Origin: a virus
Taxonomy: Duplodnaviria > Caudoviricetes
Strand: one strand, 5' to 3'
IMG/VR virus record: IMGVR_UViG_3300033547_000001
Coordinates: 10,014 to 74,013 of that record
Length of the DNA: 64,000 bases
Shown here: positions 13,391-31,839 of the stretch, one piece after another
Position numbering within the stretch: position 1 is the stretch's first letter
Layout: the number at the start of each line of letters is the position of its first letter
Program-made: the position numbers and the translations under genes
Notes under the pieces: generated by a model
What the model was told of the DNA's origin: nothing
Databases searched by the model: none
Seen by the model: only the letters and a program-made list of their open reading frames with translations

Positions 13391-14320
13391 CTAGAATGGC
13401 GAAATTCCCGACGCATGCAAGGCGGCTTGGCCTATCGTTGAAATGTTTGCTCGAGCCGCCGTCGTGAAGTGCGTGTTGTCTGCCTGCCGACAGGGCGCCG
13501 AGCCGGTGCACACCGAACCGACTAGCGAGTCAAAATTGGCGAAGGCATAGACACCGGCCGCATTGTTGATAACGCCGCTTGGCGAAGCGCTGGTCTGCGC
13601 CAATTGCACGGCGGTAGACGCCGCGCCGGCATCCCAGGTTTCCTCAGCAATAAACCACGGACCTGCGAAACCCGCCGTTCGGCTCTGGGCGATTAAAGAG
13701 TTGAGCGTGGCCGTATAGTTGACCTGCGTCGTGGCGTTTATGTTATCGGTTTCGCCCTGCATCCAGATTACAATGACGGTGATGTTGGCACCCGCCACCC
13801 AGCCCTTTGCCGCCAGACGATTGATTGCGGTCGCCAGCCGGCCTACGAGCGCACCACTCGCGTGGTCGGCAGCCGCGGTGCCGTCAACATTGATCGGCTC
13901 GACCAGAACGTGATCGAATTTTCCCGCCGTGATCAGGTCGTCGAATAGTTTCAGCACGCTCCAGCCGGATCCGGCCGCGTTGAGACACGTGCCGAGAACT
14001 GGGTCTAAGATGGAATAGACCCCGCCGTCCCCTATGTTCATCTGCAGAATGGCGCCGGCATTGGTCGGCGTGTAGAGGGTTGGGATGATGTTGGCGCCGT
14101 TGCTCTGGCCATCAACGATCGCCACCAGATAGTGGTTTCCCGCGACCGGGTTCTGCGCCGCCTGCAGCGTAACCGCGCTGGTGTTTGTGTTGATCGTGCA
14201 GCCAAGAGCGACTGGAATGGAGCCCAGTTGATTGGGATCTGGCTGAGAAGATCCACCGGGACCGGCGACGGCGAACGCCGCGTGAAGAAAGATCAGGAAT
14301 GCGAAGAATGAGCGTTTCAT
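13391..14320 (-). CDS. SGNH/sialate-O-acetylesterase-like (SASA/DUF303-type) carbohydrate esterase with signal peptide
   Basis: DGQSNG, WMQGETD, DNTHF motifs; MKRSFFAFLIFLHAAFAVA leader. Confidence 0.85.
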   Translation of the reverse strand: MKRSFFAFLIFLHAAFAVAGPGGSSQPDPNQLGSIPVALGCTINTNTSAVTLQAAQNPVAGNHYLVAIVDGQSNGANIIPTLYTPTNAGAILQMNIGDGGVYSILDPVLGTCLNAAGSGWSVLKLFDDLITAGKFDHVLVEPINVDGTAAADHASGALVGRLATAINRLAAKGWVAGANITVIVIWMQGETDNINATTQVNYTATLNSLIAQSRTAGFAGPWFIAEETWDAGAASTAVQLAQTSASPSGVINNAAGVYAFANFDSLVGSVCTGSAPCRQADNTHFTTAARANISTIGQAALHASGISPF

Positions 14321-14321
14321 G

Positions 14322-16340
14322 TCAGTAGGTCACCCTCACGTTGAGCCCGCTCTGCGAAGCCGCACCGTTGCCATAGAACGTCGCCGCGTTGGTCGTCGAG
14401 CTCGTGGTCTCGCACGCTGAGGCGAAATGCAGCCCTGCTCCTGGTTGACCAACATATTTCGCCGGCAAATTCACGATGCTCGTCGAGTTGCTAAACCCTG
14501 TCGTTCCGGTAAAAGCAGAAGTGCCGTCGAGACAGACTCCGCTCGAAATGGAGGCCGATGCCCCGGCGTTGCCGAAGGCATCGTAGGCCGCGTTGAACCC
14601 GTCCTCGTTAAGACCTCTCACGACGGTCACGCGCATCGTTGCGCTGCCGTGAGCTGCCTGCCACGTGTCTGCCACTCCCGGCAGATACGTGTAGCTGGAC
14701 GCGTTGTCCCCCACGAGAAAGTCCTGAGTGATCCGGTTGTTGGCGTTCCAAATACCGACCACGCCTGCGGTACCGCCCGCGGCGATGCCTCCAAAGATGA
14801 GATTGAACTGACCTGCCGAGCCAGTCATGCCAGACCCGAGATAGGTCAGCTTGTTTGCAGTGATGCTGCCGTAGTCCGTGGTCCCATTGTAGCAGTGCGC
14901 GACCGTGTTGGCGTTGGTCGTGTAAGGCCTGGTCGTGTGGTCAACTTGCGAATATCCGGTTCCGCGAGCCGTGTTCGATCCGGCGGTGTCCGATGCCCAT
15001 CCGCCGCCGCTGCCGTTGGTCGCGATGCAGGGCTTGTGATTCGTGTTGCCCTCCCACCATACGTCGAACACGCCGGTCGCGTTGAGCACGCCGGTCCCGC
15101 TCGATTGAATGGCCGTGCTGACCTCGTTCGATGCGATCGTGTCGATCTGGTCGATGCTGCCATTCCAGTAGGGCACCGTATTGGTGCTGTAGGAATCGTA
15201 ATACAGGGTGGTCGCCCCGGTCACCGACGCAGTCATCACGGGCGCATGGGAGGTGAGTGTCAGCCTCCCCCCGGGGGGAACAAGCAACGCCACTGTACCG
15301 GTCTGCCCATTGATCGACGCGACAGATCCAGCCGAAGCGAGTGCACTGACGGTCGTTTTCTTGAATGCAAAGCTCGCGGCCGAGTCCTGGATCAAAACGA
15401 TATCGGCCGCCACCGGGGACGCCTTTGACGTGAACGCCGTCAGATCGCAATCGGTCGGTCCCGCGGCGCCGCCGGTGTTGTTGCACTTGAACGTGTACTG
15501 CCCCATCGTGGCGGCGAACATCGAGTTCGTCACCTGGCCGGAGGTGCCGTCATTCACGACAAAGGCATTCGCAGCATGCACGTTGACGCCCAGCGCCGCG
15601 GCCACGCCCGTCCCGAGTGATGGGGTCAAGGCCGACAGCGGCAGCCCGGTCGCATTGGTCAGCGTCAGCGACGTCGGCGTTCCACCACCGCCATTCCACA
15701 GCACCGGGGCGCCAGGCGATCCGATGTTGACGCCCAGCGCCGCTGCCACGCCAGTTCCCGTTCCCGCCAGGCCGGTCGAGACTGGAAGCCCGGTGGCGTT
15801 GGTCAGCGTGGCCGAGGATGGAATTCCGAGTGCGGGAGTTACAAGGGTTGGTGACGTCGACAAGACGACATTCCCAGTCCCCGTTATCGAATATTCGCCC
15901 AGCACGCCGGCGTTATCGAACAATACGCGGGCCGAGGTGCCGCTAGTTATTACCGACGTGCCGACGATCAATGAATTCGTTGTGGCGCTGATCAACGGAC
16001 CGACCGTAGCACCGTTGATCTGCACGAACATGCCGGCCGTGGTACACCACTGATCCCCGTTGACGGGACTAGCTGGAGCCGTACCGCATGTCATGTTCAG
16101 ACCTGCGGTCGTCGGGGACGGTGGCGCTGTCACCAGGCGACCTACCATGATGTCGCCGGCCTTGTTGACCGGAACATAGCCGAGGGTGTCCTGTTTCGCG
16201 CTGAAGTAGCTGTTCCACTGGGCAGGCGTCGGCACTTGGCCGTAGATTAGGTTTGGGCTCGTCTGTGCGGCCACTGGCAGCGTCGCCCATGCGAACACCA
16301 TCCCGGCGAGTGCGGCGACCGATAGCAGGTTGTTCTTCAT
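14322..16340 (-). CDS. Tail-fibre/receptor-binding-like protein with signal-peptide-like N-terminus
   Basis: GQVPTPAQWNSYFSAKQD, YVPVNKAGDIM, two TLTNATGLP..GTGVAAALGVN repeats, GGRLTLTS..PV; Gly/Thr/Ser/Ala-rich; alternative start at 16349. Confidence 0.75.
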   Translation of the reverse strand: MKNNLLSVAALAGMVFAWATLPVAAQTSPNLIYGQVPTPAQWNSYFSAKQDTLGYVPVNKAGDIMVGRLVTAPPSPTTAGLNMTCGTAPASPVNGDQWCTTAGMFVQINGATVGPLISATTNSLIVGTSVITSGTSARVLFDNAGVLGEYSITGTGNVVLSTSPTLVTPALGIPSSATLTNATGLPVSTGLAGTGTGVAAALGVNIGSPGAPVLWNGGGGTPTSLTLTNATGLPLSALTPSLGTGVAAALGVNVHAANAFVVNDGTSGQVTNSMFAATMGQYTFKCNNTGGAAGPTDCDLTAFTSKASPVAADIVLIQDSAASFAFKKTTVSALASAGSVASINGQTGTVALLVPPGGRLTLTSHAPVMTASVTGATTLYYDSYSTNTVPYWNGSIDQIDTIASNEVSTAIQSSGTGVLNATGVFDVWWEGNTNHKPCIATNGSGGGWASDTAGSNTARGTGYSQVDHTTRPYTTNANTVAHCYNGTTDYGSITANKLTYLGSGMTGSAGQFNLIFGGIAAGGTAGVVGIWNANNRITQDFLVGDNASSYTYLPGVADTWQAAHGSATMRVTVVRGLNEDGFNAAYDAFGNAGASASISSGVCLDGTSAFTGTTGFSNSTSIVNLPAKYVGQPGAGLHFASACETTSSTTNAATFYGNGAASQSGLNVRVTY

Positions 16341-16354
16341 GTCGGGCATTTCCC

Positions 16355-17359
16355 CTAAGACTGGCTCGGAAGCGCTGGCATCACCCAGGAATCGATGGCA
16401 TCGTCTGGCAGGTCCGATACATCGTGCATGGCCTGGGCCGCCCACCGCCGGATGGACTCGACGGCCTTCCTGTCGGCGTCGTAGCCGGCCATGAAGGCAA
16501 GGTCCTCGGCGCTCCTGCCCTTGACCAGCAGCCCGGCGTGGTCCGAACACGCCGCAACTGCCGCCATCGCGGCCCGCTCCTGCGCCAGGATGGCTTCCTT
16601 GAGTGCCGCCGCTGCCGCGCCTGCCATCGGCCCGCGCCAGTCGTCAAGAGACTCCTGAACCTGGTCCACGACGAAGTCCTGGTCGGAGACCTGCTGGCTC
16701 AGCGCCACCATTGCCGCCGCATCTGCGACCGCCGACGGGGTGGGCCCGACCACCATTTGTACGCCCTTGCCCAAGATCCCCGGGGCCTCGGCCGCCATCT
16801 TGATCGCGAGCGCTCCGCGCTGGCGGTTCAGAGCGTCTAGCTTATTTCGCTCGACCTCCAGAGCGCCGATCGACTTGTGGATCTCGACTTCGTGCTGATG
16901 CCTCAGGTCCAGGAGTTTCTGCTGCTCATCGGCGGCACTCCTCATGGCTCGATCGATTATGGCCGCGTCGGATGCCGCTACATCGTTTCGCCGGAACGCC
17001 ACCAGGCGCTGCTTGGCGCACGGGGCGATCTTCTCGATCTCGGACATCTCAGCGCGGGTGATAAGTTCGATCATGGCGATCTTCTTCATCGCCAGCACAT
17101 GGCCCGGCGAAGGTCCATCGTCCACCACCTCGTAAGCTACCTCGTCGTGCTCGTTGACAGCAGCTTCTATCAACGAGTCTTCTCTCGGCATGGGGCGTTT
17201 GACGTACCTCTCGATCTCCGGGATTGACGGGTCGTTGCTGTGCTCATCCACCAGCTTCATCTGCGCACGCCAATCGCGCATCTCCTTGGCATGGGCGACA
17301 ACTCGCAGCGCGAAATCGCGAATCTTGTCGACGTCTGATTTGGCGATCTTATGGGTCAT
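16355..17359 (-). CDS. Hypothetical helical/coiled-coil protein between the two fibre genes
   Basis: ATGA overlap with fibre stop; Ala/Glu/Gln-rich. Confidence 0.7.
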   Translation of the reverse strand: MTHKIAKSDVDKIRDFALRVVAHAKEMRDWRAQMKLVDEHSNDPSIPEIERYVKRPMPREDSLIEAAVNEHDEVAYEVVDDGPSPGHVLAMKKIAMIELITRAEMSEIEKIAPCAKQRLVAFRRNDVAASDAAIIDRAMRSAADEQQKLLDLRHQHEVEIHKSIGALEVERNKLDALNRQRGALAIKMAAEAPGILGKGVQMVVGPTPSAVADAAAMVALSQQVSDQDFVVDQVQESLDDWRGPMAGAAAAALKEAILAQERAAMAAVAACSDHAGLLVKGRSAEDLAFMAGYDADRKAVESIRRWAAQAMHDVSDLPDDAIDSWVMPALPSQS

Positions 17360-18588
17360 AGTTTGAGGATCCAGTTCACAGTCATGCAATTGTGGACCGT
17401 GTTGTGAGTCCCGTTGCCACCCGTCCCACTATCCGTGGTGATATTGATGGCATGGGTGTGATTGGCATTTTCCGTAGTCGTCGTGAACCCGTAGGTGTGC
17501 GAGTGATCGGCACTCACGTCTGACGTCGTGAACGAATAGGTATGAGTATGGCGTGCACTCGCGCCGGACGTGTCGACGTTGGAGTTATTGAAACTTCCAC
17601 CTCCTGCCACATTGGCGCCACCGCTTCCAAAACCCTGTACGGAATGGAAATGATCCGGGCTATCAGTGCTGGTCGTTCCGCTACCGGTGTGGGTGTGACC
17701 GACGCTCTGGCCGCTGGTCGTGCCACCCCCGGTGTGGGCGTGGGAAGACCCTTCGATCGCGCTCGTCCCGAACACGATGTGGGTGTGGGACGGGATCTCA
17801 GCCAACAGCAGGCTGTGGAGGTTCTCCCCCAGGACGCAGCCAGGGTTGTTCGCGTTGCCGCTGGTGGTCGGGATGCCGAACAATCTCGTGGAGCCGGCAT
17901 CGGTCCCGATGATCCCTCGGCCGCTCAGGTCCAGGACCTGGATCGTCTTGTTGGCGGCGAAGTCGGCTGCCGGGTTGGCGCCCCTCCCCCCGGAGACTGG
18001 GCACTGGGAATTTGGGAAGTTGTTCCAGTGCCACGCGAACAGCGGCGCAGCGTCGGCGGCCGCGTACCCGCCCCCTGAAGAGGCGCTGCCAATCAGGAAG
18101 TTGAACTTGGCCCACACGAAGCCCGGGGGAAGGGTGGTCGAGAACGTGGTGCTGAGGGATCCGGTCCCCATGATCCCCGGAGGGCTGATCCAGTTGGTAG
18201 CACTGCTTGAATCCGGATCGGTAGTGTTGTTATCGCTGGTGCTGAGCCAAAAATTTCCGAACACCAAGGCAGATTGTAGCACCGCACCGCGTGGATAGCC
18301 GCCGATCGCAGCGGCAAAAGTCCCATCATAGATGACCGGACCTCCGGCGGCCTGCCATTGGTTCCACTGGGTGATCCGGTTGAGCAGTCCGTTCACGTCC
18401 TGACCGAACGGCGGGACGCCGCCAGCAGCGACGGGCTGGAAATTGAGCGGAGGAAATCCGTCGGTTAGCGATGCAAACCCCGGATTGATACCGATCTGTG
18501 AAGCTGTGGGAATCGATCGAATGAAGCCGCCGCCAGCCGAGTTACCAAATGGAATTGGAAACTTAGCCGGAATAGATGATGCGAGCAT
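17356..18588 (-). CDS. Tail fibre with collar domain and HxH repeats
   Basis: GFPPLNF.PVAAGGVPPFGQDVNG..GGYPRGA N-terminus; LSTTLPPGFVW..DLSGR collar; seven HxH motifs. Confidence 0.9.
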   Translation of the reverse strand: MLASSIPAKFPIPFGNSAGGGFIRSIPTASQIGINPGFASLTDGFPPLNFQPVAAGGVPPFGQDVNGLLNRITQWNQWQAAGGPVIYDGTFAAAIGGYPRGAVLQSALVFGNFWLSTSDNNTTDPDSSSATNWISPPGIMGTGSLSTTFSTTLPPGFVWAKFNFLIGSASSGGGYAAADAAPLFAWHWNNFPNSQCPVSGGRGANPAADFAANKTIQVLDLSGRGIIGTDAGSTRLFGIPTTSGNANNPGCVLGENLHSLLLAEIPSHTHIVFGTSAIEGSSHAHTGGGTTSGQSVGHTHTGSGTTSTDSPDHFHSVQGFGSGGANVAGGGSFNNSNVDTSGASARHTHTYSFTTSDVSADHSHTYGFTTTTENANHTHAINITTDSGTGGNGTHNTVHNCMTVNWILKL

Positions 18589-18601
18589 TTTGGCTTCTTT
18601 C

Positions 18602-19264
18602 TTAGATCAACTGCACGATGGTCGACGATACACCGGTCGGTTTCGGCAGGACCCCGGATTGCGACACGATCGCCAGTTCGACCGAACTCATTTTGAATGC
18701 GAACGTGTAAGTCATCGTCATGTTCAGACCATCCGTGACGTAGCAGTTGCCGCGGTTGGGGAATAGGTTGAGCAGGATCTGGTTGATTGACTTGATCGAC
18801 CCATCGGAGATGTTCGCCAGAGCCTTCGCGAAGATCAGCGTTCGGAAGGCATTGTCCGAGAGGTTGAAATTGCTGGTCAGCACTGCACCAGAATAGAACG
18901 GAGATTGGTTGAGCGGGTCGGCGCTGAGCGTCGTCGCCTCATCGAACCCGAAGTATTTCTGCGTCCCCACCAAATGCAGCGTGCGCGATACCCCCACGAT
19001 CGCTCCCCACACGTCGAGCCCATAGCCCTGCGCGGTGGCGACGTTGAACATGTAGTCGTAGAACGCGTCGAGGTTCTGCGTCTGGTCGACGTAGGCCGAG
19101 AAGTTGGCGATCAGCTGCGTGAGGATCGGCGAGTTCGCATATTGCGAGATGATCGTGAGCCAATAATCGAACGCCGGGATATCTCCGATCGGCGATATTC
19201 CGATCGTGAATTGTCCAATGCTATTAGACCCAGGCCTCGGCCGGAAGATGTTCGGTCCTGTCAT
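18602..19264 (-). CDS. DUF2612 baseplate protein
   Basis: SQYANSP, ATAQGYGLDVWGAIVGVSR, LSDNAFRTLIFAKALANI, LPKPTGV. Confidence 0.85.
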   Translation of the reverse strand: MTGPNIFRPRPGSNSIGQFTIGISPIGDIPAFDYWLTIISQYANSPILTQLIANFSAYVDQTQNLDAFYDYMFNVATAQGYGLDVWGAIVGVSRTLHLVGTQKYFGFDEATTLSADPLNQSPFYSGAVLTSNFNLSDNAFRTLIFAKALANISDGSIKSINQILLNLFPNRGNCYVTDGLNMTMTYTFAFKMSSVELAIVSQSGVLPKPTGVSSTIVQLI

Positions 19265-20892
19265 GTCACCGTGACCGCGATGTTCGCAGCGTTGACCGTC
19301 GGAGATTGGTTTATGTTCGTGGTAACGGCGTTGAGCGTCGGCTTAGCCGCGGTGAAGGTCCGGTTCGCTAACGCCGAACCGTTGACAGTGGTCGCGTTGT
19401 TCGTGGTGTAGACACCAGCGCCACCAGGTGTCCCGGATGTCTGGGTCAAGATCGTCGTATTCGCCGGAACACCAGTACCAGTCAATATCTCGCCTGATCC
19501 CGGTATAATGAGCCCGCTAGCCCCGGTTACCGTGAGATTGGTGCCGGAACCAACCGCCGCGAAGAACGCTCCCACTGTGAGGGAGTTGTTGGTCGTCCAC
19601 GAAGTGCCACTGCCGGACAGGATAGTAGTGCCTGGGACCGTGATTCCTGCGTCGTCGCTCAAGGTCTGTCCGATGGCGATCGTCCCCGATATCAGCGACG
19701 TCACAGTCAAGGCGGTTCCGAGTAGAACTCCGACGAAGACCGCACTGGACGAGTTATTTGATCCAACGACGATCGAGATGATCTGAACCCACGACCCGAG
19801 CGCCACCAGGGGTGCATAGAACCTGCTCGCGTAGATCGTCGATCCGATGCGCGCGCGAGGGCCACCGTCGGCGCCCGCGAATGCCGAGATTATGGCGCCC
19901 TGTATCAGCGCCGCAGCATTCGACGGCACCAGTGAGTTGTTGGCGGTATTGACGGCGAACAGGATGGCGAGGGACGACGGGGTCTCGAACGTCACCTGAT
20001 ATGACGGCAGCGGCGGAGAATATCCCGAGTTGCTGTCGACAACGGTGACAGTCGTGTTTCCGTTATAGTTGCAGCCCGGCGCCTTCTTGGTCCAAATCGC
20101 GTTTGCGATGTTCTGCGCTGTCCCGCCGACGGCGGCCACGTACAGCGAGTTCGGAGCTAGAGTGACACCGCCGATCGTCGCTGGCGATGATGATGGGTTC
20201 TCGGTGACGTAGGCGTCGAGGATGCCTTGCACGTTGAGGACGGCGCCGAGGACTGACGGTACCGAGCCGATCGAGTTGAGCGCGACCGAGGCGGACCGAC
20301 GCGCCTCGAACTGCGCCCTGGTCTCGGTGTTGCTGCCGAGAACACCATCGGCCAGATTGATGATCGTGTCCCACCCGGAAATATTCCGGTAGATGCTGTT
20401 GAGCGTTCCCTCCGGACAAGGGACCGGTCCCAGCACGATGCAGGCGAACGCTATCACCGCGCTTCCGAGCGCGGAGATCGTCCCGTCGTTGAGACTAGCG
20501 TAGATGTTCCCGTCTGCCGCGCGCGCCAACGATCCGGCGGGGATCACGACGCCAGCTCCGCCGGTGCATGTGGCCTGCACCACCGTCGCTGTCGATCCTT
20601 CGCGAAACAGGAAATAAAGCTCGGCTATCGCGTCCTGGAAACGCCCGTCGGCGAATGCAGGGTTCATCTGGTTGGTCAGATTGACGAACGAGTCGTTGCA
20701 GCTGCCGATGATGGCCGCGATGCTGGTTGCGAGCTGCCCCTGAGGTGACGACAGCGACTGGTTCAGTCCGCCGCCGAAGGCCGCGTTGATGTCGGCCATC
20801 ACGCCGGTCAGAATGTCCTGTTCCGACGGCGCCTGGAATCCATTAGCCCCAAAAGTCACGGCCGGAACGTTGGTGCCGGGGATGTTCGCCAT
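19261..20892 (-). CDS. Baseplate J/gp47-like protein
   Basis: SSPQGQLA, ADGRFQDAI, ETRAQFEARR, KKAPGC; C-terminal duplicated Gly/Thr module. Confidence 0.88.
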   Translation of the reverse strand: MANIPGTNVPAVTFGANGFQAPSEQDILTGVMADINAAFGGGLNQSLSSPQGQLATSIAAIIGSCNDSFVNLTNQMNPAFADGRFQDAIAELYFLFREGSTATVVQATCTGGAGVVIPAGSLARAADGNIYASLNDGTISALGSAVIAFACIVLGPVPCPEGTLNSIYRNISGWDTIINLADGVLGSNTETRAQFEARRSASVALNSIGSVPSVLGAVLNVQGILDAYVTENPSSSPATIGGVTLAPNSLYVAAVGGTAQNIANAIWTKKAPGCNYNGNTTVTVVDSNSGYSPPLPSYQVTFETPSSLAILFAVNTANNSLVPSNAAALIQGAIISAFAGADGGPRARIGSTIYASRFYAPLVALGSWVQIISIVVGSNNSSSAVFVGVLLGTALTVTSLISGTIAIGQTLSDDAGITVPGTTILSGSGTSWTTNNSLTVGAFFAAVGSGTNLTVTGASGLIIPGSGEILTGTGVPANTTILTQTSGTPGGAGVYTTNNATTVNGSALANRTFTAAKPTLNAVTTNINQSPTVNAANIAVTVT

Positions 20893-20893
20893 C

Positions 20894-21253
20894 TCAGAAC
20901 GCCACCGCCGTCGGCGTGGTGGCGCCAGGAGGTGTCACCTGGACTTGACCGTTGGCCAGCCGATCGGGCTGTGAAATCGAGGTAATGAACACCGCGGCCT
21001 GCGCCCCATTGGGCAAAACTGACAACGCAGCTGTCGACATCAGGGCCTTCATCAACGGCACATTCGGCCTCTGCCCGATGATCACAGGATAGTTGACGCC
21101 GATCGTGGTGTCGTACCACTGCTCTCCGAGCACCAGCTTGATCGCGCTGCATGCGTCCTGCGCCATCGAATACGGGTCATCGGCCATAGCGATGTTGCCC
21201 GCGACATCCACCGCGAGATCCCATGTATCTGGCCGGAGAAACAACGTCTTCAT
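20894..21253 (-). CDS. Baseplate wedge/sheath-initiator (gp25/gp46-like) protein
   Basis: WDL..D..GNIA, AQD..AIKLVLGEQWYDTT.GV.Y. Confidence 0.75.
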   Translation of the reverse strand: MKTLFLRPDTWDLAVDVAGNIAMADDPYSMAQDACSAIKLVLGEQWYDTTIGVNYPVIIGQRPNVPLMKALMSTAALSVLPNGAQAAVFITSISQPDRLANGQVQVTPPGATTPTAVAF

Positions 21254-21966
21254 ATTGGTGGCCCCGTGGTCCCGCCCTGCGGATCAGGATGCTCGTGTGT
21301 TGCGCCGCTTTTGCCTGCCGCGACGACATCGGTATCCGCGGTGAGGGTGCCGCCGATATGGACATTGCCGCCGTAGAGTCCGCCCGAGACGCTCTGGATC
21401 GCGCCACCGAGTTGCAGGTTGTTCTGCATGATGACATTGCCGGTGAACGTCCATCCTGCTGCACTCGACACCAATGAGTTGCCGTGCGCGGCCGTGATGT
21501 TGATCCCGTCGGCGGTCCACTTAATCCACTGCGTCGGCGCGGTGCCATTCAGTCCTGGAATCCCGAACAGGTAGATCCCGTCTGACGGGCTGAACTTGCG
21601 GTTCGACCCGGGGTTGGCGATCGCCTTCGCGGCCTTGACCGCCGAGATGTCCCGGTCGCAGACGCCCATTACTCCGAGATCCCCAACCGCGGGATCGATC
21701 TCGAATGCGTTGGTCCCACCCATCACCCACGCATACGGGATCCCATTGATGGTCCCGTGCGGCGACGAGTTGTCCTGGCCATCGAGCTGATTGACGGCGA
21801 TCTGCACGTCGACGGTGTGGGCGCTGGTGTCGACTGAGATCACCTTCACGACCTTGACCGTCGATATGCGCCCCAGGCGCTGCAGGATAGCGAAGTCGAT
21901 CGGATTGAAGCTGCCGACCGCGTCGGAGGGATCCTGCTGGCCGGCGCCTGGTGTCTGGTCTGCCAT
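21250..21966 (-). CDS. Baseplate central spike (Gp138/gp45-like)
   Basis: VKVISV, GGTNAFEIDP.VGDLG....CDRDIS, terminal HEHPDPQGG.TGPP. Confidence 0.85.
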   Translation of the reverse strand: MADQTPGAGQQDPSDAVGSFNPIDFAILQRLGRISTVKVVKVISVDTSAHTVDVQIAVNQLDGQDNSSPHGTINGIPYAWVMGGTNAFEIDPAVGDLGVMGVCDRDISAVKAAKAIANPGSNRKFSPSDGIYLFGIPGLNGTAPTQWIKWTADGINITAAHGNSLVSSAAGWTFTGNVIMQNNLQLGGAIQSVSGGLYGGNVHIGGTLTADTDVVAAGKSGATHEHPDPQGGTTGPPI

Positions 21967-21967
21967 C

Positions 21968-22888
21968 TTATTGCACCGGGACCGGATACTTCGGGTTGTA
22001 GCAGAGGACGGTCGAGAACCATGGACCATCGGGCATCTCGCAGGACAGGCTGTGCGCGAGCCCGTAGACCGCCCACGTCCCGTTGGCCGGCTGGAGACTG
22101 CTCTGCACCTGCACCTTGCCGCCGAACGGGATGGACGGGTCGTAGAGCGTCTCAACGCTGATCCCATAAGCGGTATAGGTCGGATATCCCTTCATGTTGC
22201 CGTTGGGCGGCGGGGCAATCAGCGGGACCTGGCCGTTGCGCGCGCCGTTGCGCGGCCAGATCGCGAGCACGCCGCCCTCGCCGTGGTTCCAGCTGATGCC
22301 AGCCGCCTCGGCGCAGTCTTGCGCCTGGTTCTTCACGGACCCGGAGAAATATGGATTCGACAGCTGGCCCTGCACGCCACTGTTCTCGAACTTCAACCCC
22401 ATCTGCGTTGCAAAGCTGGACATGATCGTCGCCACATCGGTCGAGCCTTGATAGCTCGTTGGCTTGGTCGTCGTGACTGCCTGCGGCGCCAGTGTGTGCG
22501 CGGAGAGGTGGAAGCTGACGTCTGGCGATGCATTGAAGTCACCGTATGCGGCCAGGATGTATCCGGTGAACACCGTGCCTCCGTTTGTGAAGCCGCCTGA
22601 TCCGTCGTCCTGGCCGGCCTCAAGCACGATCAAATTCTTTGGGACCAGGTTGACCTGCATGCCCAGCGTCGACAGCCGATTCATCGTCGACAATGACAGG
22701 CCGTAGACCGTGAGCTCCATCGTCCCGTCGGATGGGCCGCCAGCGTGCAGAATCTCTGCCGACATCCGCAGGTTCTCGATCACGACGGTGTCGGATCCGC
22801 CGCTGCTCGAGAACGTCTGCGCCTGACCCTCGATCGTCGCGAGCGTGATCGTCGCCCGCAGTTTGCGGACGGTGATGGAGTCCGTCAT
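21968..22888 (-). CDS. Baseplate hub protein
   Basis: LTVYGLSLSTMN, LEAG, VFTGYI, GYPTYT, YDPSIPFGG.VQVQS, GPWFST. Confidence 0.8.
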   Translation of the reverse strand: MTDSITVRKLRATITLATIEGQAQTFSSSGGSDTVVIENLRMSAEILHAGGPSDGTMELTVYGLSLSTMNRLSTLGMQVNLVPKNLIVLEAGQDDGSGGFTNGGTVFTGYILAAYGDFNASPDVSFHLSAHTLAPQAVTTTKPTSYQGSTDVATIMSSFATQMGLKFENSGVQGQLSNPYFSGSVKNQAQDCAEAAGISWNHGEGGVLAIWPRNGARNGQVPLIAPPPNGNMKGYPTYTAYGISVETLYDPSIPFGGKVQVQSSLQPANGTWAVYGLAHSLSCEMPDGPWFSTVLCYNPKYPVPVQ

Positions 22889-23222: not shown

Positions 23223-23894
23223 TCAGAAATCGAAGCCGGTCCCGCGCATGTCGGTAAAGGCTGTGCTCTGGGCCGGCGTGGGAGTGGCCGATTGAATATT
23301 GCCGTCGCTGACCTGCGGCGAGGCACTCGGCGACTGCGGCTGCTTGATCGTCATCACCGTCGTCGTGGCCGCGCTGCCTTGCTGCTGCTGCGAGTTGACG
23401 AACTGCTGGGCCGCGGTGACCCGGATCTCTTCGCAATAGAGATCGATAACGACCAGGCCGACCCCATTGCGCGCGGTCCTCCGGAGTGACTGATGTACCG
23501 GGTTTATGCTCTGATACACCTTCTCGGGCGTCACGGCATCGAATAGATCCGTCGAGTCGATGATCGCGTCGACCGAGTCGATCAGCGCCTGCCGGTCCGC
23601 CACTGAGCCGCCCGTGGAGAATTGGAGTCGCACGTCGTAGGGAACCTGCACCTTGTTGTAGGTCGCGAAGGAGCCTTCCTCGACCGGGAAGTTCGAGATC
23701 CGCATATCTTGCTTGAACTCGAACGAAACGACATTGTCCGCGGTGACTACATTCTCGCCGTCGAGGAACAGGCCCCATTGGGGGGCGTCTGGCCCGCCGG
23801 CGCCCCCCAGGAGCGCCAGCACGTCCGAGGTGACCAGTTGGAGCGCCTCGACGACCACGTCGTCAGCGAGCGCCGGAAGCCCGGGAATCGCCAT
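23223..23894 (-). CDS. Tail-tube initiator/Dit-like protein
   Basis: QWGLF, ISNFPVEEGSFATYNKV..PY; follows tape measure. Confidence 0.75.
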   Translation of the reverse strand: MAIPGLPALADDVVVEALQLVTSDVLALLGGAGGPDAPQWGLFLDGENVVTADNVVSFEFKQDMRISNFPVEEGSFATYNKVQVPYDVRLQFSTGGSVADRQALIDSVDAIIDSTDLFDAVTPEKVYQSINPVHQSLRRTARNGVGLVVIDLYCEEIRVTAAQQFVNSQQQQGSAATTTVMTIKQPQSPSASPQVSDGNIQSATPTPAQSTAFTDMRGTGFDF

Positions 23895-23895
23895 T

Positions 23896-25362: not shown

Positions 25363-25366
25363 GCGA

Positions 25367-25603
25367 TCAGCCCTTCTTCCCGGCCATCACGCGCCTGTTG
25401 TGCGCGTCGACCGCAGCAATCTCGCGCATGTCATAGCAGTCTTCCAGCGAGTAGACGGTCGCGAGCTCGTGCAGCGTCGCCATCCTCATCGCCACCAAAT
25501 CGCCGATCAGGGAGGTGACGTTTGCGTAGTCGACGAGTCCGGCTGTCTCGCTGAGACCGCTGCCGCCGCCAAAATCGACGCGAGCTCTTGAAAGGTAAAA
25601 CCC
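25367..25603 (-). CDS. -1 frameshift extension of the tail chaperone
   Basis: G GGT TTT heptamer at 25603-25597; -1 frame gives ...DYANVTSLIG...ATLHELATVYSLEDCYDMREI. Confidence 0.75.
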   Translation of the reverse strand, partial: GFYLSRARVDFGGGSGLSETAGLVDYANVTSLIGDLVAMRMATLHELATVYSLEDCYDMREIAAVDAHNRRVMAGKKG

Positions 25604-25989
25604 ATGTGAAGCTCTACAAGCTCCTTCCGGAGTCGGTAAAGCGTCGAGATTTCCCAGATGTCTCCGTCGCCGCCGAGCGGCCGAATGAAGTCCGGCGACT
25701 CCTGGATCTTGATGCACGGTAGCATCTCGTCCATCAGCGCATCGACAGCTGGCATATCGCCACCAGCCAGCGCCTGCAGTCCGAGCAGATAAAGCCCGAG
25801 GAAACCCAATTTTCCGAACTCCTCGCGGACGTTGAGCTCCTGCCGGCTCATCGCGCCGATCGCGTGCCGGGCCCACCGCTCGGCTTTGAGCGCAGGCATC
25901 TCCTCGATATAGTAGCGCTTCCCCGCGTCGCGGTTCGGCGGTTCGCCTTCCTTCGGCTTCTCGATCTCGACGAACTTGTGCTTCAGCAC
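25507..25989 (-). CDS. Tail assembly chaperone
   Basis: RDAGKRYYIEEMPA..AERWA, DIWEISTLYRLRKE..ELH.GF; between tube and tape measure. Confidence 0.8.
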   Translation of the reverse strand: MLKHKFVEIEKPKEGEPPNRDAGKRYYIEEMPALKAERWARHAIGAMSRQELNVREEFGKLGFLGLYLLGLQALAGGDMPAVDALMDEMLPCIKIQESPDFIRPLGGDGDIWEISTLYRLRKELVELHMGFTFQELASILAAAAVSARQPDSSTTQTSPP

Positions 25990-26050
25990 CCTGCCACCTC
26001 CGGCTTCGATGCAAGTGGATTACAGAAAACGCCGTCCTGGGTAAAGTGCC

Positions 26051-26482
26051 TCACGACGGCTGCGAGAACACGCGCGCCCACACTATTCCGAATTTGCGCG
26101 GCTGCAGGATCTTCTTCACGTTCGGCGCGGGCGAGTATTCCTTCAGGAACCCGTTGCTCCATGTCCACTTCGTACCGAGGCTCTTGAGCAGCATGTTGCC
26201 GTTCGCCGCGAACGTGTCTTGCTGCGAATCCTGCGCCTGCTTCCACGTATCGAACATGAAGCACGATGGCGAGTTGGCCTGCAGCGTGTAGACATACTTC
26301 ACGGCGTTGAAGACGTAGCCGGCGCTGAGGTGTCCGTCGACGCCCATCAACTCCTCGCACAACGTCAGTGTATCGACGTCAGCGACGTCGTCCACGGAGA
26401 ACTGCTGGAGCTGCTGCGGCTGGTTGAACACGCCCGGGATCGTGAGCGTGATGACTGCGTTGACCGCGGTGATCGTTGTCAT
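26051..26482 (-). CDS. Tail tube protein
   Basis: ITAVNAVITL, MGVDGHLSAG, LQANSPS, KKILQPR; directly follows sheath. Confidence 0.8.
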   Translation of the reverse strand: MTTITAVNAVITLTIPGVFNQPQQLQQFSVDDVADVDTLTLCEELMGVDGHLSAGYVFNAVKYVYTLQANSPSCFMFDTWKQAQDSQQDTFAANGNMLLKSLGTKWTWSNGFLKEYSPAPNVKKILQPRKFGIVWARVFSQPS

Positions 26483-26523
26483 GGTGAGGTTGCCTTTTTG
26501 CGGGAATATTTTTCAGAAATATT

Positions 26524-28317
26524 TCAGATGAGCGTCACGACGCCGAGGTTGATGCTCTGCACCGACCCGCCGTCCGCATAATAGTAGGTGACCTGGCGCG
26601 GTCCGCGGCTCGCCCTCAGCGTGGGCGTAGCCGGGACGATCAGCAGGTACCAGCCCTGAGAGCTGATCGTGGGGGCGATGTTCTTGCCGGCAGCCGCATT
26701 GACCGCAGCGATCTGGTTCGCCGCAAGAACCGTGCCGGGAACCACGGCTCCGAAGTTTATGGCCGCCGTGATCGGGTCTGCGAGCGATGCCTCGATCAGG
26801 GCATCACCTGAGGCCACAAATGGGATCGAATTGACGTTCGCCTGCAGGTTCATGAGCGCCGTCTGCAGCGCGCTCGTGAGCCATACTTCGTTTGCGAAGG
26901 TGTCGAGCCAGAGGTACGGCCCGGTGATCATGCCTCTCTGGAAGTCCTGGAAGCCCTGATTGGCCGTCGCGATCGCCGCGTAATAGTTGTAGCTGTTGCC
27001 GCGATCGCCGAGAACCTGCGGGTTGCCGCCGAGGTTGATGGCGGTCTGGTTGTCCATCGCCGTCGGCACCATGCCGGCCTGCGATTTGTAGGCGAACGAC
27101 ACACGGCCACCCAGCGCGGTGAAATTAATCGACGCGACGAAGCCGCAGGCCATGGGCCCGATATTGGTGCCGAGTGCGTTGAGGCTGGTCGGGTCGTAGA
27201 GCAGGCACGTCCCCGAGTAATTCGCCTGTGTCACCGCGTAACCGAAGCTGGAAGTCGCCGGCACCGCTCCGGCGCCGAGCGCCGCCGGGTCGGGCGCCAT
27301 ATAGATGAACCTGGCTCCGTTGTTCTGCGAGTTCGCCCACGCTGCGAAGGCGAGTTTCTGGGTGAAGCCTGACCCGTTGTCCGGGTCGAAGGTGGTGGTG
27401 AACGATGCCCAGTTGTTGGTGAGCGTGCGCACCGAGTTCATGAACGTCGCCGGCACGGCCGCTGCCGATCCCTGCGATATGACTGCGCCGGTCGCCTGGG
27501 TGAGCAGAAGCGAAGTGGCCATCGCCCCCGATCCGAAGGTGATCGCGGAGTTGACCCCGGTGGTGCCCGAATTGACGACGAACCCGCCGGACACACTGTC
27601 GAAATAGACCGCGGGGAGAAGCGAAGTCAGTGTCGTGGGCGACCCGATGGTCGACGACTGCGTGAGGTTGTACGTCCCCACGCCGCCGGTGCCGGTGCCG
27701 AATGACGCGACGAACGTGCTGGCCGTGACGCCGGCGCCGGTGATCTTGTCGCCCACGGCGATTGGCGTTCCGCCGGTCAGCACCGCGGACACGGTCATCA
27801 CGGTCGTGGCTACCGTCGCGGTGACGGTCCCCTGCGAGGCGCCGGATATTGCGAGATCGGTCTCGATCAGCTGCGCGGCACTCGTGAACGACGTGGCGCT
27901 GCTGAGGTTCACCGACGCGGTCGCGAGCACCGAGTCGATCGTGACGCTCAGGGTCCCGCTGAGGGCTTGGAGCTGCGTCAGGGTGAGGGCGGAAATGTTG
28001 CCGCCCCTGAGGTAGGCCGAGACTGCGCTGAGGGGATACTGCACAACGAGCATAGCTGCCGGTTTGAGCGTCGACGAATCGAAGCCTCCGAAGTACCCGG
28101 TACCGAACCCCACGCCCCCTCCCGCCACGCGCGCCATCACCGAGGTCGGGCCGAAGTAGCTGTTGACCGCAGTGGTTCCCCCGAACGACAGCGCGGTGCC
28201 GATCGGCACCCGCGTATCGGTGGTCAGTATGAGGCCGTTGAGGTTGATCGCCGAGCCGCCCGCGGCGAGGACGCCCGGGTTCGTTGCGACGAATAGGTCG
28301 GCGCTAATCGTGGTCAT
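26524..28317 (-). CDS. Tail sheath protein (DUF3383-type)
   Basis: NPGVLAAGG, YFGPTS, NWASFTT, YKSQAG, GPYLWLDT, IPF...G...I. Confidence 0.9.
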   Translation of the reverse strand: MTTISADLFVATNPGVLAAGGSAINLNGLILTTDTRVPIGTALSFGGTTAVNSYFGPTSVMARVAGGGVGFGTGYFGGFDSSTLKPAAMLVVQYPLSAVSAYLRGGNISALTLTQLQALSGTLSVTIDSVLATASVNLSSATSFTSAAQLIETDLAISGASQGTVTATVATTVMTVSAVLTGGTPIAVGDKITGAGVTASTFVASFGTGTGGVGTYNLTQSSTIGSPTTLTSLLPAVYFDSVSGGFVVNSGTTGVNSAITFGSGAMATSLLLTQATGAVISQGSAAAVPATFMNSVRTLTNNWASFTTTFDPDNGSGFTQKLAFAAWANSQNNGARFIYMAPDPAALGAGAVPATSSFGYAVTQANYSGTCLLYDPTSLNALGTNIGPMACGFVASINFTALGGRVSFAYKSQAGMVPTAMDNQTAINLGGNPQVLGDRGNSYNYYAAIATANQGFQDFQRGMITGPYLWLDTFANEVWLTSALQTALMNLQANVNSIPFVASGDALIEASLADPITAAINFGAVVPGTVLAANQIAAVNAAAGKNIAPTISSQGWYLLIVPATPTLRASRGPRQVTYYYADGGSVQSINLGVVTLI

Positions 28318-28331
28318 GGGCTTTGCGTCCT

Positions 28332-29063
28332 TCAGTGCGGAGGTTGCGTGACGTCGACGTTCGCCACCGTGAGCACGATCCCGTCGGCGAACTGCATGGG
28401 TATGGAGACGATCAGATTGACCTGCATGTGCAGGTCGACCGTCCACCGCGTCTCGTATTCCTTGGCCGCGGTAATGAATGGCACCTGCCGAGGGTCATCT
28501 GCATAGAACGGCGACACGCCGAGCGGCTCAAGCTGATCAGCAGCATAGCCGTCCCGGAAGAGGGCGTTCAGGATCGAGGCGTTCTCGGCCGAGTTAGGCC
28601 CGTGCACGTCGACCTGCATCACGACCTCGACGTCCTCCTCGACCTGGATTGTTCCGGCCGCCATGGTCTGTGGCGCGCCGATCGACTGGGACGGACTGAT
28701 GGTGTAGGTCCCGATCCCTCCCGTTCCCGTGCCAGGTGGCGCGACTACCACGGTGTTAACGGCCACACCTACGCCGAAGATGATGCTGCCGATCGAGATT
28801 GGCGCGTTGAGGTTCGGGTTGGGATCGAGGGCAGACACCGTCATCAGCGTCCCAGCGATCGCTGCGGTGAACTTCGAGTCCGCCGGCGTCTCGAGGTTGG
28901 TCGACAGGCGCGGCCGCGACAGCGGCCACATCTCGGCGAAGTCGCCAAGGAACGATGGGACGCGGTTGACCTGGCCGACTACTGCCGGGATGCCGGTGAT
29001 CAATGTTATGAAGTCGCCGACCGCAGAGTTGATCTGCGCCTGCGTGATCGAGATGGATGACAT
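28332..29063 (-). CDS. Neck/tail-terminator protein with inserted Gly/Thr module
   Basis: GQVNRVP, RLSTN, MQVDVHG, PFYADDPRQ.PF....EYETRW. Confidence 0.8.
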   Translation of the reverse strand: MSSISITQAQINSAVGDFITLITGIPAVVGQVNRVPSFLGDFAEMWPLSRPRLSTNLETPADSKFTAAIAGTLMTVSALDPNPNLNAPISIGSIIFGVGVAVNTVVVAPPGTGTGGIGTYTISPSQSIGAPQTMAAGTIQVEEDVEVVMQVDVHGPNSAENASILNALFRDGYAADQLEPLGVSPFYADDPRQVPFITAAKEYETRWTVDLHMQVNLIVSIPMQFADGIVLTVANVDVTQPPH

Positions 29064-29116
29064 CTATTTCCCTAGCGGCCTCGGATATCCCGAACCATGT
29101 GGTACGGGCTGGAATG

Positions 29117-31246
29117 TCATGGGCTCAACGCATTCGCCGCAATAAGTGCGTTTACGATCGCGGTGCCGCCGGGTGCGTTCGTCGCGGTGCACGACTGGAG
29201 TTGGCAATAAATGTGAGCACCGTCATGAGTATAACCGACGGCATCCCCAGATTTCCACAGATTGATATTAGGGATCGTAGTGTTTTCTACCTCTGTTCCG
29301 ACCTCGGCAAAGCTAGTTTGGTTGAGGATAGTCCCCGCGCGAATGATCGTGTTCAAGGCTGCAACTTGTCCGCTTGAGTTATCGGTCTGATTGATGTCGC
29401 TCGGCGGTGTCGACGTTAACGTAACTTGTGGCACCATGGTCGACTGGATGACGGTTGCTATCCGACCTCCAGTGCCACGAACGTAATTGCCGTTGGTTAA
29501 TCCGATGTTGGTTGCGGCAACGGTCGATGATCCACCCGTGTTGACGTCGTTGTCACCGAGTTGATTCCAAAACACATTAATATTTCCACTGTTAGCAAAG
29601 TTGATACGATCAACTATATTGACGGTGGTTTCAGTAGTCGCAGCTGCGAGGCCCGTGCGTCCCTGATGCAAGTACCCCCCGATCGTGCTCGGAGTAGTTC
29701 TGTTGCTCATCACGGTGTCGAGATAACCGGCCATGTAGCCGATGCCACCGCCGCTTCCGTTGCCATCCACCAATTGGATGTAGCCGCCAACACCTTGGCC
29801 GTTACTGTCAGTCATAAGGGCGATGGACCGCTGTGTGTTTGGAACTTCGCAGATCAAGTTGCCGCTGACCATGAACGACATATTGGTGGTAATGGTCCCG
29901 CCTCCGGTGGCGTCCGACAAACCGTTCCCCTGCTGCGCCAGATCGCCAATCGCCGAATTTGGAGCGTAATCGGTCAGATATACCAGACCGCCGTTATTGA
30001 TCGTGATGAAGCTCCTAATCCACACTTGGCCGGCCGGAATCGTGACACCGCTAGCAATGTCCGTCGCGTCGAACAGATCGCCGGCATTAACCGTCATCGT
30101 GTTCACGCCGCTCGCAGTGAGATTGACGAATGTCCCAGGTCCGTATTCGATTTGCGTGTGAACGGTGTAAGGATTGGCAAAATTAGCATCGCCGATCGAA
30201 TAGCCCCAACCGGTATAAACAACACTTGGATTCGCGCATGGATGATTGAGGTACGTCATGCGCCGCGTGTTGAACGTGTTCGCGGTGGCAAACGCGACCG
30301 TTGTATTGATCGTCGGGAGATCGTTTCTTGATCCGGCTATTTGGCGGATCGTCGGATAATCAGACGTAATCCCGCTGCGGTAAGCCACAATGGCATTGTA
30401 GATGGCGAGATGCTGCGCTGCGGTCAAATGCCCGCAAATAAAACCAAATGCAATGCCGCCGAAAGACCATTCCTGAGATCCGTTGGCTCTGGCCAGGAAA
30501 TTGATTGCCGCATTGGCCAATGCCGTCGAGGTGGACGTGGTTGTTGCCCCGGCCACTCCCTGCGCGTAAGTCGTGAATCCGGTGGATAATGACCGGTCGA
30601 GAGCAAGCAATCCTGCACCGCTGCTCGTGCTCACGCCGGCTGACTGCGTCGTCGAATTCAGTGCGCCAGTCTGCACATTTCCGACCGTGTCGTTGGGTCG
30701 TATTTCGGCATAAGCATTGGTGGCATACCCCATGGCCGCACCATGGATGGCCGCTGCCGTGATCGACCATTCTGCGATCATCGCGCTGTTTTGCGTGTAA
30801 TTGAGTCCAGAGGCGGTCGATGGATTGAGATTCGAACTGATTGATGTTCCGCCCGCAGGATCTCCCGTTATGCCGAGATCGGCGCTGAATATCGCCGGAC
30901 CTGTTATGGTAGCCCCGTAGCTCGCCTGGATCAGATTGGTCAGCGCGGTCACCTGGTCGCGCGCCTGGAACGCATAGACCGCATCGCACTGCGAATAGAT
31001 CCCGGCCGTATTCAGCGCCGCGAAGAATGTGTTGTATCTCGCCTTGCGGGCGGTGTTGGGCTGCGTTGCGAGGCGAGCGAAAAAGGCGGTTGCTTGTGGG
31101 TTATATACCGGTCCGGTGCTGGCAGCCTTGCCACCCATCCACAGCAGCCGATTGGCCGCCTCAACCGATCCGACGACCATCAGCGCGCATAGCGCCAGTA
31201 CCACAGCAATGAAAGATCTGCGTCGCACCACTTCTGCGCCCCTCAA
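29117..31246 (-). CDS. Large exported-type protein: lectin-like N-terminal region plus C-terminal SGNH hydrolase
   Basis: RRRSFIAVVLALCALMVVGSVEA leader; TDSNG, LGDND and DGAH SGNH blocks; lower GC; true start probably GTG near 31231. Confidence 0.75.
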   Translation of the reverse strand: MRGAEVVRRRSFIAVVLALCALMVVGSVEAANRLLWMGGKAASTGPVYNPQATAFFARLATQPNTARKARYNTFFAALNTAGIYSQCDAVYAFQARDQVTALTNLIQASYGATITGPAIFSADLGITGDPAGGTSISSNLNPSTASGLNYTQNSAMIAEWSITAAAIHGAAMGYATNAYAEIRPNDTVGNVQTGALNSTTQSAGVSTSSGAGLLALDRSLSTGFTTYAQGVAGATTTSTSTALANAAINFLARANGSQEWSFGGIAFGFICGHLTAAQHLAIYNAIVAYRSGITSDYPTIRQIAGSRNDLPTINTTVAFATANTFNTRRMTYLNHPCANPSVVYTGWGYSIGDANFANPYTVHTQIEYGPGTFVNLTASGVNTMTVNAGDLFDATDIASGVTIPAGQVWIRSFITINNGGLVYLTDYAPNSAIGDLAQQGNGLSDATGGGTITTNMSFMVSGNLICEVPNTQRSIALMTDSNGQGVGGYIQLVDGNGSGGGIGYMAGYLDTVMSNRTTPSTIGGYLHQGRTGLAAATTETTVNIVDRINFANSGNINVFWNQLGDNDVNTGGSSTVAATNIGLTNGNYVRGTGGRIATVIQSTMVPQVTLTSTPPSDINQTDNSSGQVAALNTIIRAGTILNQTSFAEVGTEVENTTIPNINLWKSGDAVGYTHDGAHIYCQLQSCTATNAPGGTAIVNALIAANALSP

Positions 31247-31839
31247 TTGTTGATGATCGTTCGCAGAAAGTATGAATGCTTCTCGTTGGCGATCGGCGTG
31301 TAGGCGCCGATCTCCTCAAGCGCGAATATCGTCATCTGCGAGGCCTGGGATGGAGCCGGCAGTACGGTGCTCAGCATCAGGTTAGATCCCGAGCACTCCG
31401 AGAAATATTGGGCCGTCCCGTCGTTGGTCACCTGCCACGCCGAGCACGTCAGGCTGCCGAGGTAGATGTTGGCCGCGAGGTCGGCCGCGTAAGGACCGAC
31501 GTAGGCGCTGCCATCGACGAGGCTGGTCGTGGTGGGCTTCTGGGAATAGAGCCACAGCGTCGAAGTCCCCGGCTTGTTCGTCCCGTTCGAGTAGATCAAC
31601 GCCTTGATCACCACGAGTTGGCCAGACTGGGTGCCGCCAAGGATGATCGGTGATGCTACCGCGCTGCCGCTGGTATTGGTCGCGAAAAGCTGGTTTCCCG
31701 TGTAGGGCGTCGCAGAGTTCGAGTGCGTGGTGCTGCCGGTCCCGTTATATGCGAGCTGCGCCGCAGAAGGCGCGACCGCACACAGCACCGCAAATGCGGC
31801 GACGAGCGCCGAGGCGATGATCTTCCTCATCTGGTCCAT
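31243..31839 (-). CDS. Predicted exported beta-rich protein
   Basis: MRKIIASALVAAFAVLCAVAPSAA-Q leader. Confidence 0.7.
   Translation of the reverse strand: MDQMRKIIASALVAAFAVLCAVAPSAAQLAYNGTGSTTHSNSATPYTGNQLFATNTSGSAVASPIILGGTQSGQLVVIKALIYSNGTNKPGTSTLWLYSQKPTTTSLVDGSAYVGPYAADLAANIYLGSLTCSAWQVTNDGTAQYFSECSGSNLMLSTVLPAPSQASQMTIFALEEIGAYTPIANEKHSYFLRTIINN

Follow-up and report, generated by a model that had tools for sequence, protein, structure and literature searches.

The 64,000-nucleotide stretch of DNA analysed here (the window) consists of bases 10014-74013 of one 74,013-bp contig (IMG/VR virus record IMGVR_UViG_3300033547_000001) from a tailed soil virus of the Caudoviricetes, and its minus strand carries a particle module with a contractile tail. 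Six proteins of the window, designated by the lower coordinate of their genes, begin with putative export leaders: a tail-fibre-like protein of 672 amino acids (aa) (14322..16340), two sugar esterases (13391..14320 and 29117..31231) and two small proteins (12089..12475 and 31243..31839), all encoded on the minus strand, and a third small protein encoded on the plus strand (7344..7736). An earlier note, made from the sequence alone, had pointed to basic-hydrophobic-AxA leaders on these six proteins, had remarked that the canonical tail fibre (17356..18588, minus strand) has none, and had proposed that a second set of receptor-binding or receptor-modifying proteins is folded in the periplasm. 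The leaders are present at all six genes, and the canonical fibre indeed lacks one.

Leaders were called with a custom score of the n-, h- and c-regions rather than with SignalP. Five of the six proteins have the features of Sec-type signal peptides (a basic n-region, an uncharged h-region, and small residues at positions -3 and -1) with scores of at least 41; the leader of 7344 (codons 1-24, 7344-7415) is weaker, having an arginine in the h-region, and its homologues in two related loci (L051 and L067) have strong leaders of the form MKK...AxA before a conserved mature part. The predicted cuts (marked by a slash) are AHA/VDF in 7344, ALA/AET in 12089 (leader codons 1-19), AVA/GPGGSS in 13391 (codons 1-19, 14264-14320), VAA/QTSPNL in 14322 (codons 1-25, 16266-16340), VEA/ANR in 29117 (codons 1-25, 31157-31231) and SAA/QLAYNG in 31243 (codons 1-27, 31759-31839). 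A Shine-Dalgarno-like motif is found at each of the six starts, which include the ATG at 16340 as the true start of the fibre-like gene (the top of its open reading frame (ORF), at 16550, is not the start) and the GTG at 31231 as the start of 29117. On reading the sequences, no lipobox ([LVI][ASTVI][GAS]C at the end of the h-region) was seen in any of the six. Applied to related loci, the same score was positive for 15 of 535 ORFs of the core tail and baseplate (2.8%) versus 127 of 410 ORFs located downstream of the fibre (31%), so the leader signal exceeds what chance would give. A survey of homologues, which the earlier note had suggested as a check, found leaders on 73 of 80 relatives of the fibre-like protein, 53 of 60 of the 198-aa protein 31243, all six of the lectin-esterase 29117, 16 of 26 of the esterase 13391 and both of 7344; the leader features are kept in these homologues while the leader sequences themselves diverge.

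The mature parts of five of the proteins contain 2, 4, 4, 6 and 8 cysteines in closely spaced pairs, equivalent to 1.27 per 100 aa; the corresponding figure for the core particle proteins (n = 23) is 0.53, and the mature part of 7344 has a single cysteine. Among the best 120 relatives of the 672-aa protein, the 61 that bear a leader have a median of 10 cysteines, with an even count in 93% and none with zero; the 59 that do not have a median of one cysteine, and 39% of them have none. The family sharing the N-terminal domain of this protein shows an even cysteine count in 62 of 67 complete leader-bearing members, and leader-less orthologues in three loci (L010, L084 and L087) possess one or two cysteines and carry other, cysteine-poor C-terminal modules. 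Such co-occurrence of leaders with paired cysteines is predicted by periplasmic folding, and would not be expected of an anchor that stays uncleaved or of a wrongly chosen start. To judge from these sequence features, the six proteins are very probably Sec-type pre-proteins that undergo export and disulfide folding in the periplasm.

The 672-aa protein consists of its leader, a conserved N-terminal domain (the N-domain, residues ~26-115), a stalk of glycine, serine and threonine, a beta domain (350-535) and a TNF/C1q-like tip (535-672), with eight paired cysteines; its relatives in databases number more than 4000. In the 73 leader-bearing relatives, which come from viral contigs and bacterial genomes, the leader stands directly before the N-domain (motif QSSPNLxYGQVPTAAQWN), an AxA cut is predicted in 61, and glutamine occupies position +1 in 64. 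Many of the homologues have a reading frame that opens no more than three codons before the leader methionine, which makes an alternative start impossible. The leader-less exceptions belong to two lineages (L010/L044 and L084/L087), and their genes start exactly at the predicted mature end and lie in the same genomic place. The fibre-like gene follows genes for the hub, gpW-, gpJ- and gpI-like proteins and the canonical fibre in 78 of 96 related loci, with either nothing or a small ORF resembling 16355 (described below) separating it from the canonical fibre; five loci (L015, L036, L093, L094 and L096) have it between gpJ and gpI. N-domain identity across loci is 45-66%, approximately the conservation of baseplate proteins, and total length ranges from 259 to 1661 aa. 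With a gene in the tail module, a conserved N-terminal part and an exchangeable C-terminal part, the protein follows the pattern of tail fibres; in its conserved leader and paired cysteines it appears to depart from the cytoplasmic manufacture that characterizes phage fibres.

An AlphaFold2 model of the fibre-like protein has a predicted local distance difference test (pLDDT) value above 93 for residues 350-672, and the stalk (120-345) is unmodelled, as expected for a trimer that is folded as a monomer. The tip is a TNF/C1q-like jelly roll, for which the best structural match is the TNF-like lectin PLTL (9ib6; Z 11.8, root-mean-square deviation 2.3 over 120 residues), followed by Pgp3 (Z 10.1), C1q domains (Z 10.0) and cyanophage fibre tips (Z 9.6 and 8.0); the receptor-binding domain of TM4 also matches. 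Searches of Pfam, PHROGs and NCBIfam returned no named family for the 672-aa protein, 31243, 12089, 7344 or 16355, and a sequence search of the PDB gave no match for the fibre profile or 29117. Among 50,697 records of cultured phages searched with tblastn there were three partial fibre matches only; one of them is to Bradyrhizobium phage ppBjS10J-1, in which the matching protein has no leader. Database proteins combine the same C-terminal domain with at least five other types of N-terminal domain, each behind a leader, which suggests that leader-bearing fibres exist for several particle types. On a contig of a Methylocella metagenome-assembled genome (L013:3970-5937) a leader-bearing homologue with the same N-domain has no tail genes within 4 kb; its neighbours are presumably an exported LptA-like protein, guessed from sequence, and rpoN, as read from the N-terminal sequence, and it may be a domesticated cell-surface fibre.

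The canonical fibre, of 410 aa, matches PHROG tail-fibre families (E 2e-35), which identify it as a baseplate tail fibre rather than the collar fibre of the earlier note. Its N-terminal ~130 aa are kept in 78 loci, and because the median length of the orthologues is 383 aa it is considered a short fibre that is complete, instead of a stub. A model in which the canonical fibre is a socket stub for the exported fibre was rejected for this lineage, since the canonical fibre is full length in the 78 loci. BLASTP found no similarity between the canonical and exported fibres, so a matching specificity cannot be argued for the two. The canonical fibre has repeated HxH motifs (GHTHTG, RHTHTY, NHTHAI), which resemble the metal-binding motifs of fibre tips of the T4 gp12/gp37 type. 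Between the canonical and exported fibre genes lies a 334-aa ORF (16355..17359, minus strand) of which the start overlaps the fibre stop codon and the N-terminal ~140 aa are kept at the same place in 13 related loci; from its position, it is possibly a fibre assembly chaperone.

The gene for the SASA/SGNH-type carbohydrate O-acetylesterase 13391 (309 aa, four cysteines) starts 1 nt past the stop of the fibre-like gene. The protein scores 22.1 bits against PF03629, under the cut-off of 24.8, and this family is found in most of its homologues; residues Q72, S73, G189, E190, D281 and H284, which include those of the GQSN serine block (Q72, S73) and the D-x-x-H block (D281, H284), are invariant in 26 homologues, of which the 10 without a leader mostly start near a conserved motif at the mature end. 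A homologue is present in just one of the 96 related loci. The lectin-SGNH protein 29117 (704 aa, six cysteines) is without a Pfam match, PF13472 being found on one of its homologues; its Atlas neighbours, taken as a lead only, are ConA/LamG-like over residues 48-291 and GDSL/SGNH over residues 287-704, and D475 and S476 (block I, with its serine) and D670, G671 and H673 (block V, D-x-x-H) are invariant among six sequences. Both esterases appear to keep Ser-Asp-His triads and are predicted to deacetylate. A search for related loci with 29117 found none, and a related GDSL-lectin protein of Sinorhizobium phage phiM12 has no leader. The earlier note had described the leader of 29117 as Tat-like: the RRRSFI motif is present in the n-region, and a leader of the form RRRS[FS]I is kept in two relatives (L098 and L099), but five other homologues lack a twin-arginine motif in context, and the leader combines a strongly hydrophobic h-region with a c-region that has no basic character, so that Tat export, though possible, is doubtful.

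Gene 31243 encodes a 198-aa jelly-roll protein whose family has leaders in 53 of 60 cluster representatives, 94% of those having an even cysteine count. Its AlphaFold2 model (pLDDT 89.9) comprises a helix (residues 3-19) followed by a beta sandwich, for which structural comparison (Foldseek, VIA) found generic carbohydrate-binding modules and viral jelly rolls only (best Z 6.9), so that no function can be derived. Together with 29117 it occupies a slot between a head gene (31890..32291, minus strand; PHROG 1912), the upstream border, and the neck/tail terminator (28332..29063, minus strand; PF23961, E 4e-22), the downstream border. The same slot in the 72-kb relatives L098 and L099 contains a 31243 homologue followed by other genes, all with leaders; in L096 it is empty, and the head gene directly adjoins the neck terminator. 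The products encoded at L098:8512-10763 and L099:8606-11118 include lectin-like proteins with the RRRS[FS]I leader, an SGNH esterase (GDS motif) and a GH5-like protein (NEP motif). From this varied leader-bearing content across relatives, it seems that the slot takes up exported sugar-active cargo.

Spacing around the leader-bearing genes is 1-53 nt, and neither a promoter, in a scan for the sigma-70 consensus, nor an intrinsic terminator was found flanking them; tight spacing and the lack of such signals together imply late co-expression with the particle genes. In having no promoter and terminator of their own these genes differ from morons. The other mark of a moron, patchy occurrence with atypical composition, is seen in the variable or empty slot, in the G+C content of third codon positions (GC3) of 29117 (0.63, versus ~0.8 in neighbouring genes) and in the SASA esterase gene with its single occurrence; the fibre-like gene is present at the fixed position in 78 of the 96 loci.

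Of the remaining small exported proteins, 7344 is 130 aa long, and 12089 is a protein of 128 aa with four cysteines at positions 74/90 and 114/125, a leader score of 42.6 at its true N-terminus, and the ribosome site GAAGGAGA. Gene 12089 lies between an endolysin-like gene and genes for membrane proteins. A 299-aa ORF of the presumed lysis region (11136-12035, minus strand) has a second leader-like or membrane-like segment at residues ~111-141, and may represent two genes or a membrane protein; the products of 10566-10826 and 9909-10346 look like small membrane proteins of the holin type.

The contig has a G+C content of ~61%, and its termini share an overlap of ~166 bp, from which it is taken to be a complete, circularly assembled phage genome. 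The head side of the particle module runs from the portal through a Nudix-protease fusion, the major head protein (35995-37119) and neck proteins to the neck terminator; the tail side runs from a DUF3383-type sheath through the tube, the tape measure, the baseplate hub and the gpW-, gpJ- and gpI-like proteins to the canonical tail fibre. The baseplate genes (18602..22888, minus strand), encoding the gpI-like protein, the gpJ-like wedge, the gpW-like protein and the hub (PHROG 587, 6, 120 and 196), are all without leaders. Identity to the closest cultured phages, taken over the sheath or the head protein, is no more than 37-48%. Prophages of Rhizobium, Bradyrhizobium, Labrys, Lichenihabitans and Paraburkholderia contain relatives of the tail module, as do many viral contigs of 70-75 kb, and the phage likely has a host among the Hyphomicrobiales. 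The Nudix-protease fusion (38288-40933, minus strand, 881 aa), which joins a MutT/Nudix hydrolase (residues 78-213) to a head maturation protease (382-865) according to PHROG matches, is unusual in a head module. A 632-aa protein (2524-4422, plus strand) has weak matches to a ParB N-terminal domain and a helix-turn-helix, both under the Pfam cut-offs, and ARAGORN predicts a single tRNA in the genome, tRNA-Thr (CGT), at 9255-9330 on the minus strand.

Assembly of tailed phages is, by the textbook, wholly cytoplasmic. The proposal of the earlier note that a second receptor-binding or receptor-modifying set folds in the periplasm is upheld insofar as these are pre-proteins encoded in the late virion operon, are of glycan-binding and deacetylating types, and show signs of oxidative folding; of the two destinations that the note had offered, entry into virions at lysis and the blocking and deacetylation of receptors, neither is clearly favoured, and they are weighed here among several explanations. 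In the one we prefer, the six pre-proteins, produced from the late particle operon, very probably cross the inner membrane, are cut after AxA, usually with glutamine at +1, and fold with disulfides in the periplasm. Surface glycans would be the target of this set, which comprises the fibre (trimeric, its tip a TNF-like lectin), a jelly-roll protein, a fusion of a ConA-like lectin with an SGNH esterase, and a SASA esterase. Once the holin, endolysin and spanin merge the compartments, the accessory receptor-binding fibre would dock via its N-domain on a socket of the baseplate or fibre. The esterases and lectins, freed with the burst either loose or borne on the fibre, would strip O-acetyl groups from the host polysaccharide, and this deacetylation may expose or destroy receptors and help the progeny to leave the debris. 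Provided that the protein is exported, its role as an accessory receptor-binding fibre that docks at lysis has a probability just short of even; docking on virions at lysis, taken overall, is rated somewhat lower, and the broader proposition, that a large lineage of contractile-tailed phages of soil Proteobacteria makes part of its adsorption apparatus outside the cytoplasm, with Sec-exported disulfide fibres and perhaps esterases being stored in the periplasm and attaching to finished particles at lysis, is more tentative again.

Several observations argue for docking. The N-domain resembles an adaptor and appears tied to this type of baseplate across distant hosts, and the gene, whose place in the baseplate module is fixed, can sit inside the baseplate operon; its spacing and want of separate expression signals point to co-expression with the particle genes. 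Since orthologues without a leader carry this N-domain too, at an unchanged genomic place, the partner of the domain must be reachable from either compartment. The predicted fold of the tip is common to phage fibre tips, and by analogy, Cellulophaga phage phi19:1 has leader-bearing proteins (gp101-gp104) that are annotated as virion proteins from tandem mass spectrometry (MS/MS). Other considerations weigh against docking. We know of no tailed phage that adds an exported protein to its particle, and with the signal-less canonical fibre complete, a second fibre is not obviously needed. Dilution at lysis would hinder assembly, no domain for docking is seen in the small SASA esterase, and the slot between head and tail genes looks like a site for cargo, varying in content and being empty in L096. 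One fibre homologue (L013) has a chromosomal context that is not that of a phage, the MS/MS data of phi19:1, which has a host in the Bacteroidota, may reflect co-purifying protein, and both cleavage and localisation are predictions of the custom score rather than of SignalP.

A second explanation, which we regard as a serious possibility without favouring it, is that the proteins are exported and never enter the particle: the receptor glycan, both on the producing cell and on its debris, would be bound by the fibre and lectins and deacetylated by the esterases, with all of them acting from the periplasm, from the cell surface or free in the lysate. Superinfection would thereby be blocked and the progeny spared from debris, as with Llp of T5, with Cor or with a receptor-destroying enzyme. 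Leaders on all six proteins and disulfide-type cysteines are as expected for such a set, as are a canonical fibre that is complete without exported proteins and esterases that are small soluble enzymes with intact triads. The slot also speaks for it, with genes that are interchangeable (exported SGNH, GH5-like and lectin proteins in L098 and L099), none at all in L096 and an atypical GC3 in 29117, as does the L013 homologue of the fibre, which lies next to the putative rpoN outside any phage, and there is precedent in the leader-bearing receptor blockers Llp and Cor, which are encoded beside receptor-binding genes. However, a protein that is free or bound to the envelope has no obvious need of a conserved N-domain linked to the baseplate from Rhizobium to Paraburkholderia with a C-terminus swapped as in a receptor-binding protein; the orthologues that occupy this place with no leader and few cysteines would have no access to the envelope until lysis; and the apparently late expression, coupled to that of the particle, would come too late for exclusion to count much.

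A third explanation, lysogenic conversion, is unlikely: surface fibres and enzymes would be expressed from a prophage and displayed on the host, in the manner of the MAT fibres of Bdellovibrio bacteriovorus, for adhesion or surface remodelling. The leader, N-domain, variable stalk and disulfide-containing TNF-like tip do match the architecture of MAT fibres, the relatives of the phage include prophages of Bradyrhizobium, Rhizobium and Labrys, and the L013 homologue adjoins rpoN in a chromosomal context; against this, the genes are tightly coupled in a late operon with no promoter or terminator of their own, no integrase was found among ten large proteins of the window scanned against Pfam, and the fibre-like gene is fixed in the baseplate module rather than being a free cassette. 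It is most improbable that the N-termini are uncleaved anchors, assembly segments or the product of wrong starts on proteins that remain cytoplasmic parts of the particle, for although the h-regions are rather long (14-18 residues), AxA is followed by glutamine at the cut in 61 of 73 relatives, the leader methionine lies almost at the opening of the reading frame, paired cysteines accompany the leader, leader-less variants start exactly where the mature protein would, and so few core proteins score as positive.

Hundreds of phages and prophages of rhizobia and related bacteria have, at a fixed position in their baseplate module, a fibre-type protein that is built for export and disulfide folding. 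If the protein joins virions, host range would depend on the Sec and Dsb machinery of the host and on events at lysis, and both the prediction of host range from genomes and the engineering of fibres would have to consider leaders; there would then be a second arm of tailed-phage morphogenesis, outside the cytoplasm. If it does not, these phages possess a large unrecognised class of exported proteins that mask or destroy receptors. In either case, annotation pipelines that name such genes "tail fibre" overlook a conserved leader.

Among known systems, Llp of phage T5, Cor of phages T1, phi80 and N15, and Lom and Bor of lambda are exported proteins, encoded beside receptor-binding genes, that mask the receptor at the envelope. 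They are lipoproteins or barrels of small size, and promoters of their own are frequent among them, whereas the proteins of this phage are large, fibre-like and enzymatic, have no separate expression signals, and include an N-domain like that of a virion adaptor. The tailspike gp63.1 of phage G7C, which has gp66 as its adaptor, is a virion-borne enzyme that deacetylates an O-acetylated surface polysaccharide; tailspikes of this type resemble the present set in the pairing of an SGNH-type esterase with a fibre, and differ in having no signal peptide and being assembled in the cytoplasm. Secreted and signal-arrest-release endolysins, such as Lys44 of fOg44 and Lyz of P1, are phage late proteins exported by Sec before lysis (PMC6116005), and a review of phage enzymes treats signal peptides for endolysins only (PMC6116005). 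These are lysis enzymes, whereas the exported set of this phage consists of fibre-like and glycan-binding proteins of the tail module. Tail fibres with leaders were not described for any tailed phage in the full-text literature that was searched, in agreement with the suggestion of the earlier note that this arm of morphogenesis is undescribed.

Closer parallels are found in two systems. In the GenBank record of Cellulophaga phage phi19:1 (NC_021799), gp101-gp104 are listed as virion proteins on the strength of MS/MS, and the custom score gives each of the four a leader at its start. The likeness lies in consecutive leader-bearing late proteins of the fibre and pectate-lyase types; phi19:1 differs in that it is a siphovirus, has a host in the Bacteroidota and is unrelated in sequence to this phage, and its cysteine counts (2, 2, 0 and 11) do not evidently follow the paired pattern seen here. 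The closest described architecture to that of the 672-aa protein is the MAT fibre of B. bacteriovorus, which has a signal peptide, a conserved N-domain of ~130 aa, a variable trimeric stalk and swappable tips, and is displayed on the cell surface (Caulton et al. 2024, PMC10769870). The MAT N-domain is rich in beta structure, and the tips include TNF-like domains with disulfides (PMC10769870). The likeness is one of architecture and tip fold alone: the tip of the 672-aa protein aligns with the MAT tips of Bd2734 (Z 8.4) and Bd2439 (Z 7.4). MAT genes are chromosomal and provide for the predator's own surface, whereas the gene of the 672-aa protein is fixed in the baseplate-fibre module of a phage. 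The present set varies on two known kinds of protein, exported phage late proteins and modular trimeric adhesins.

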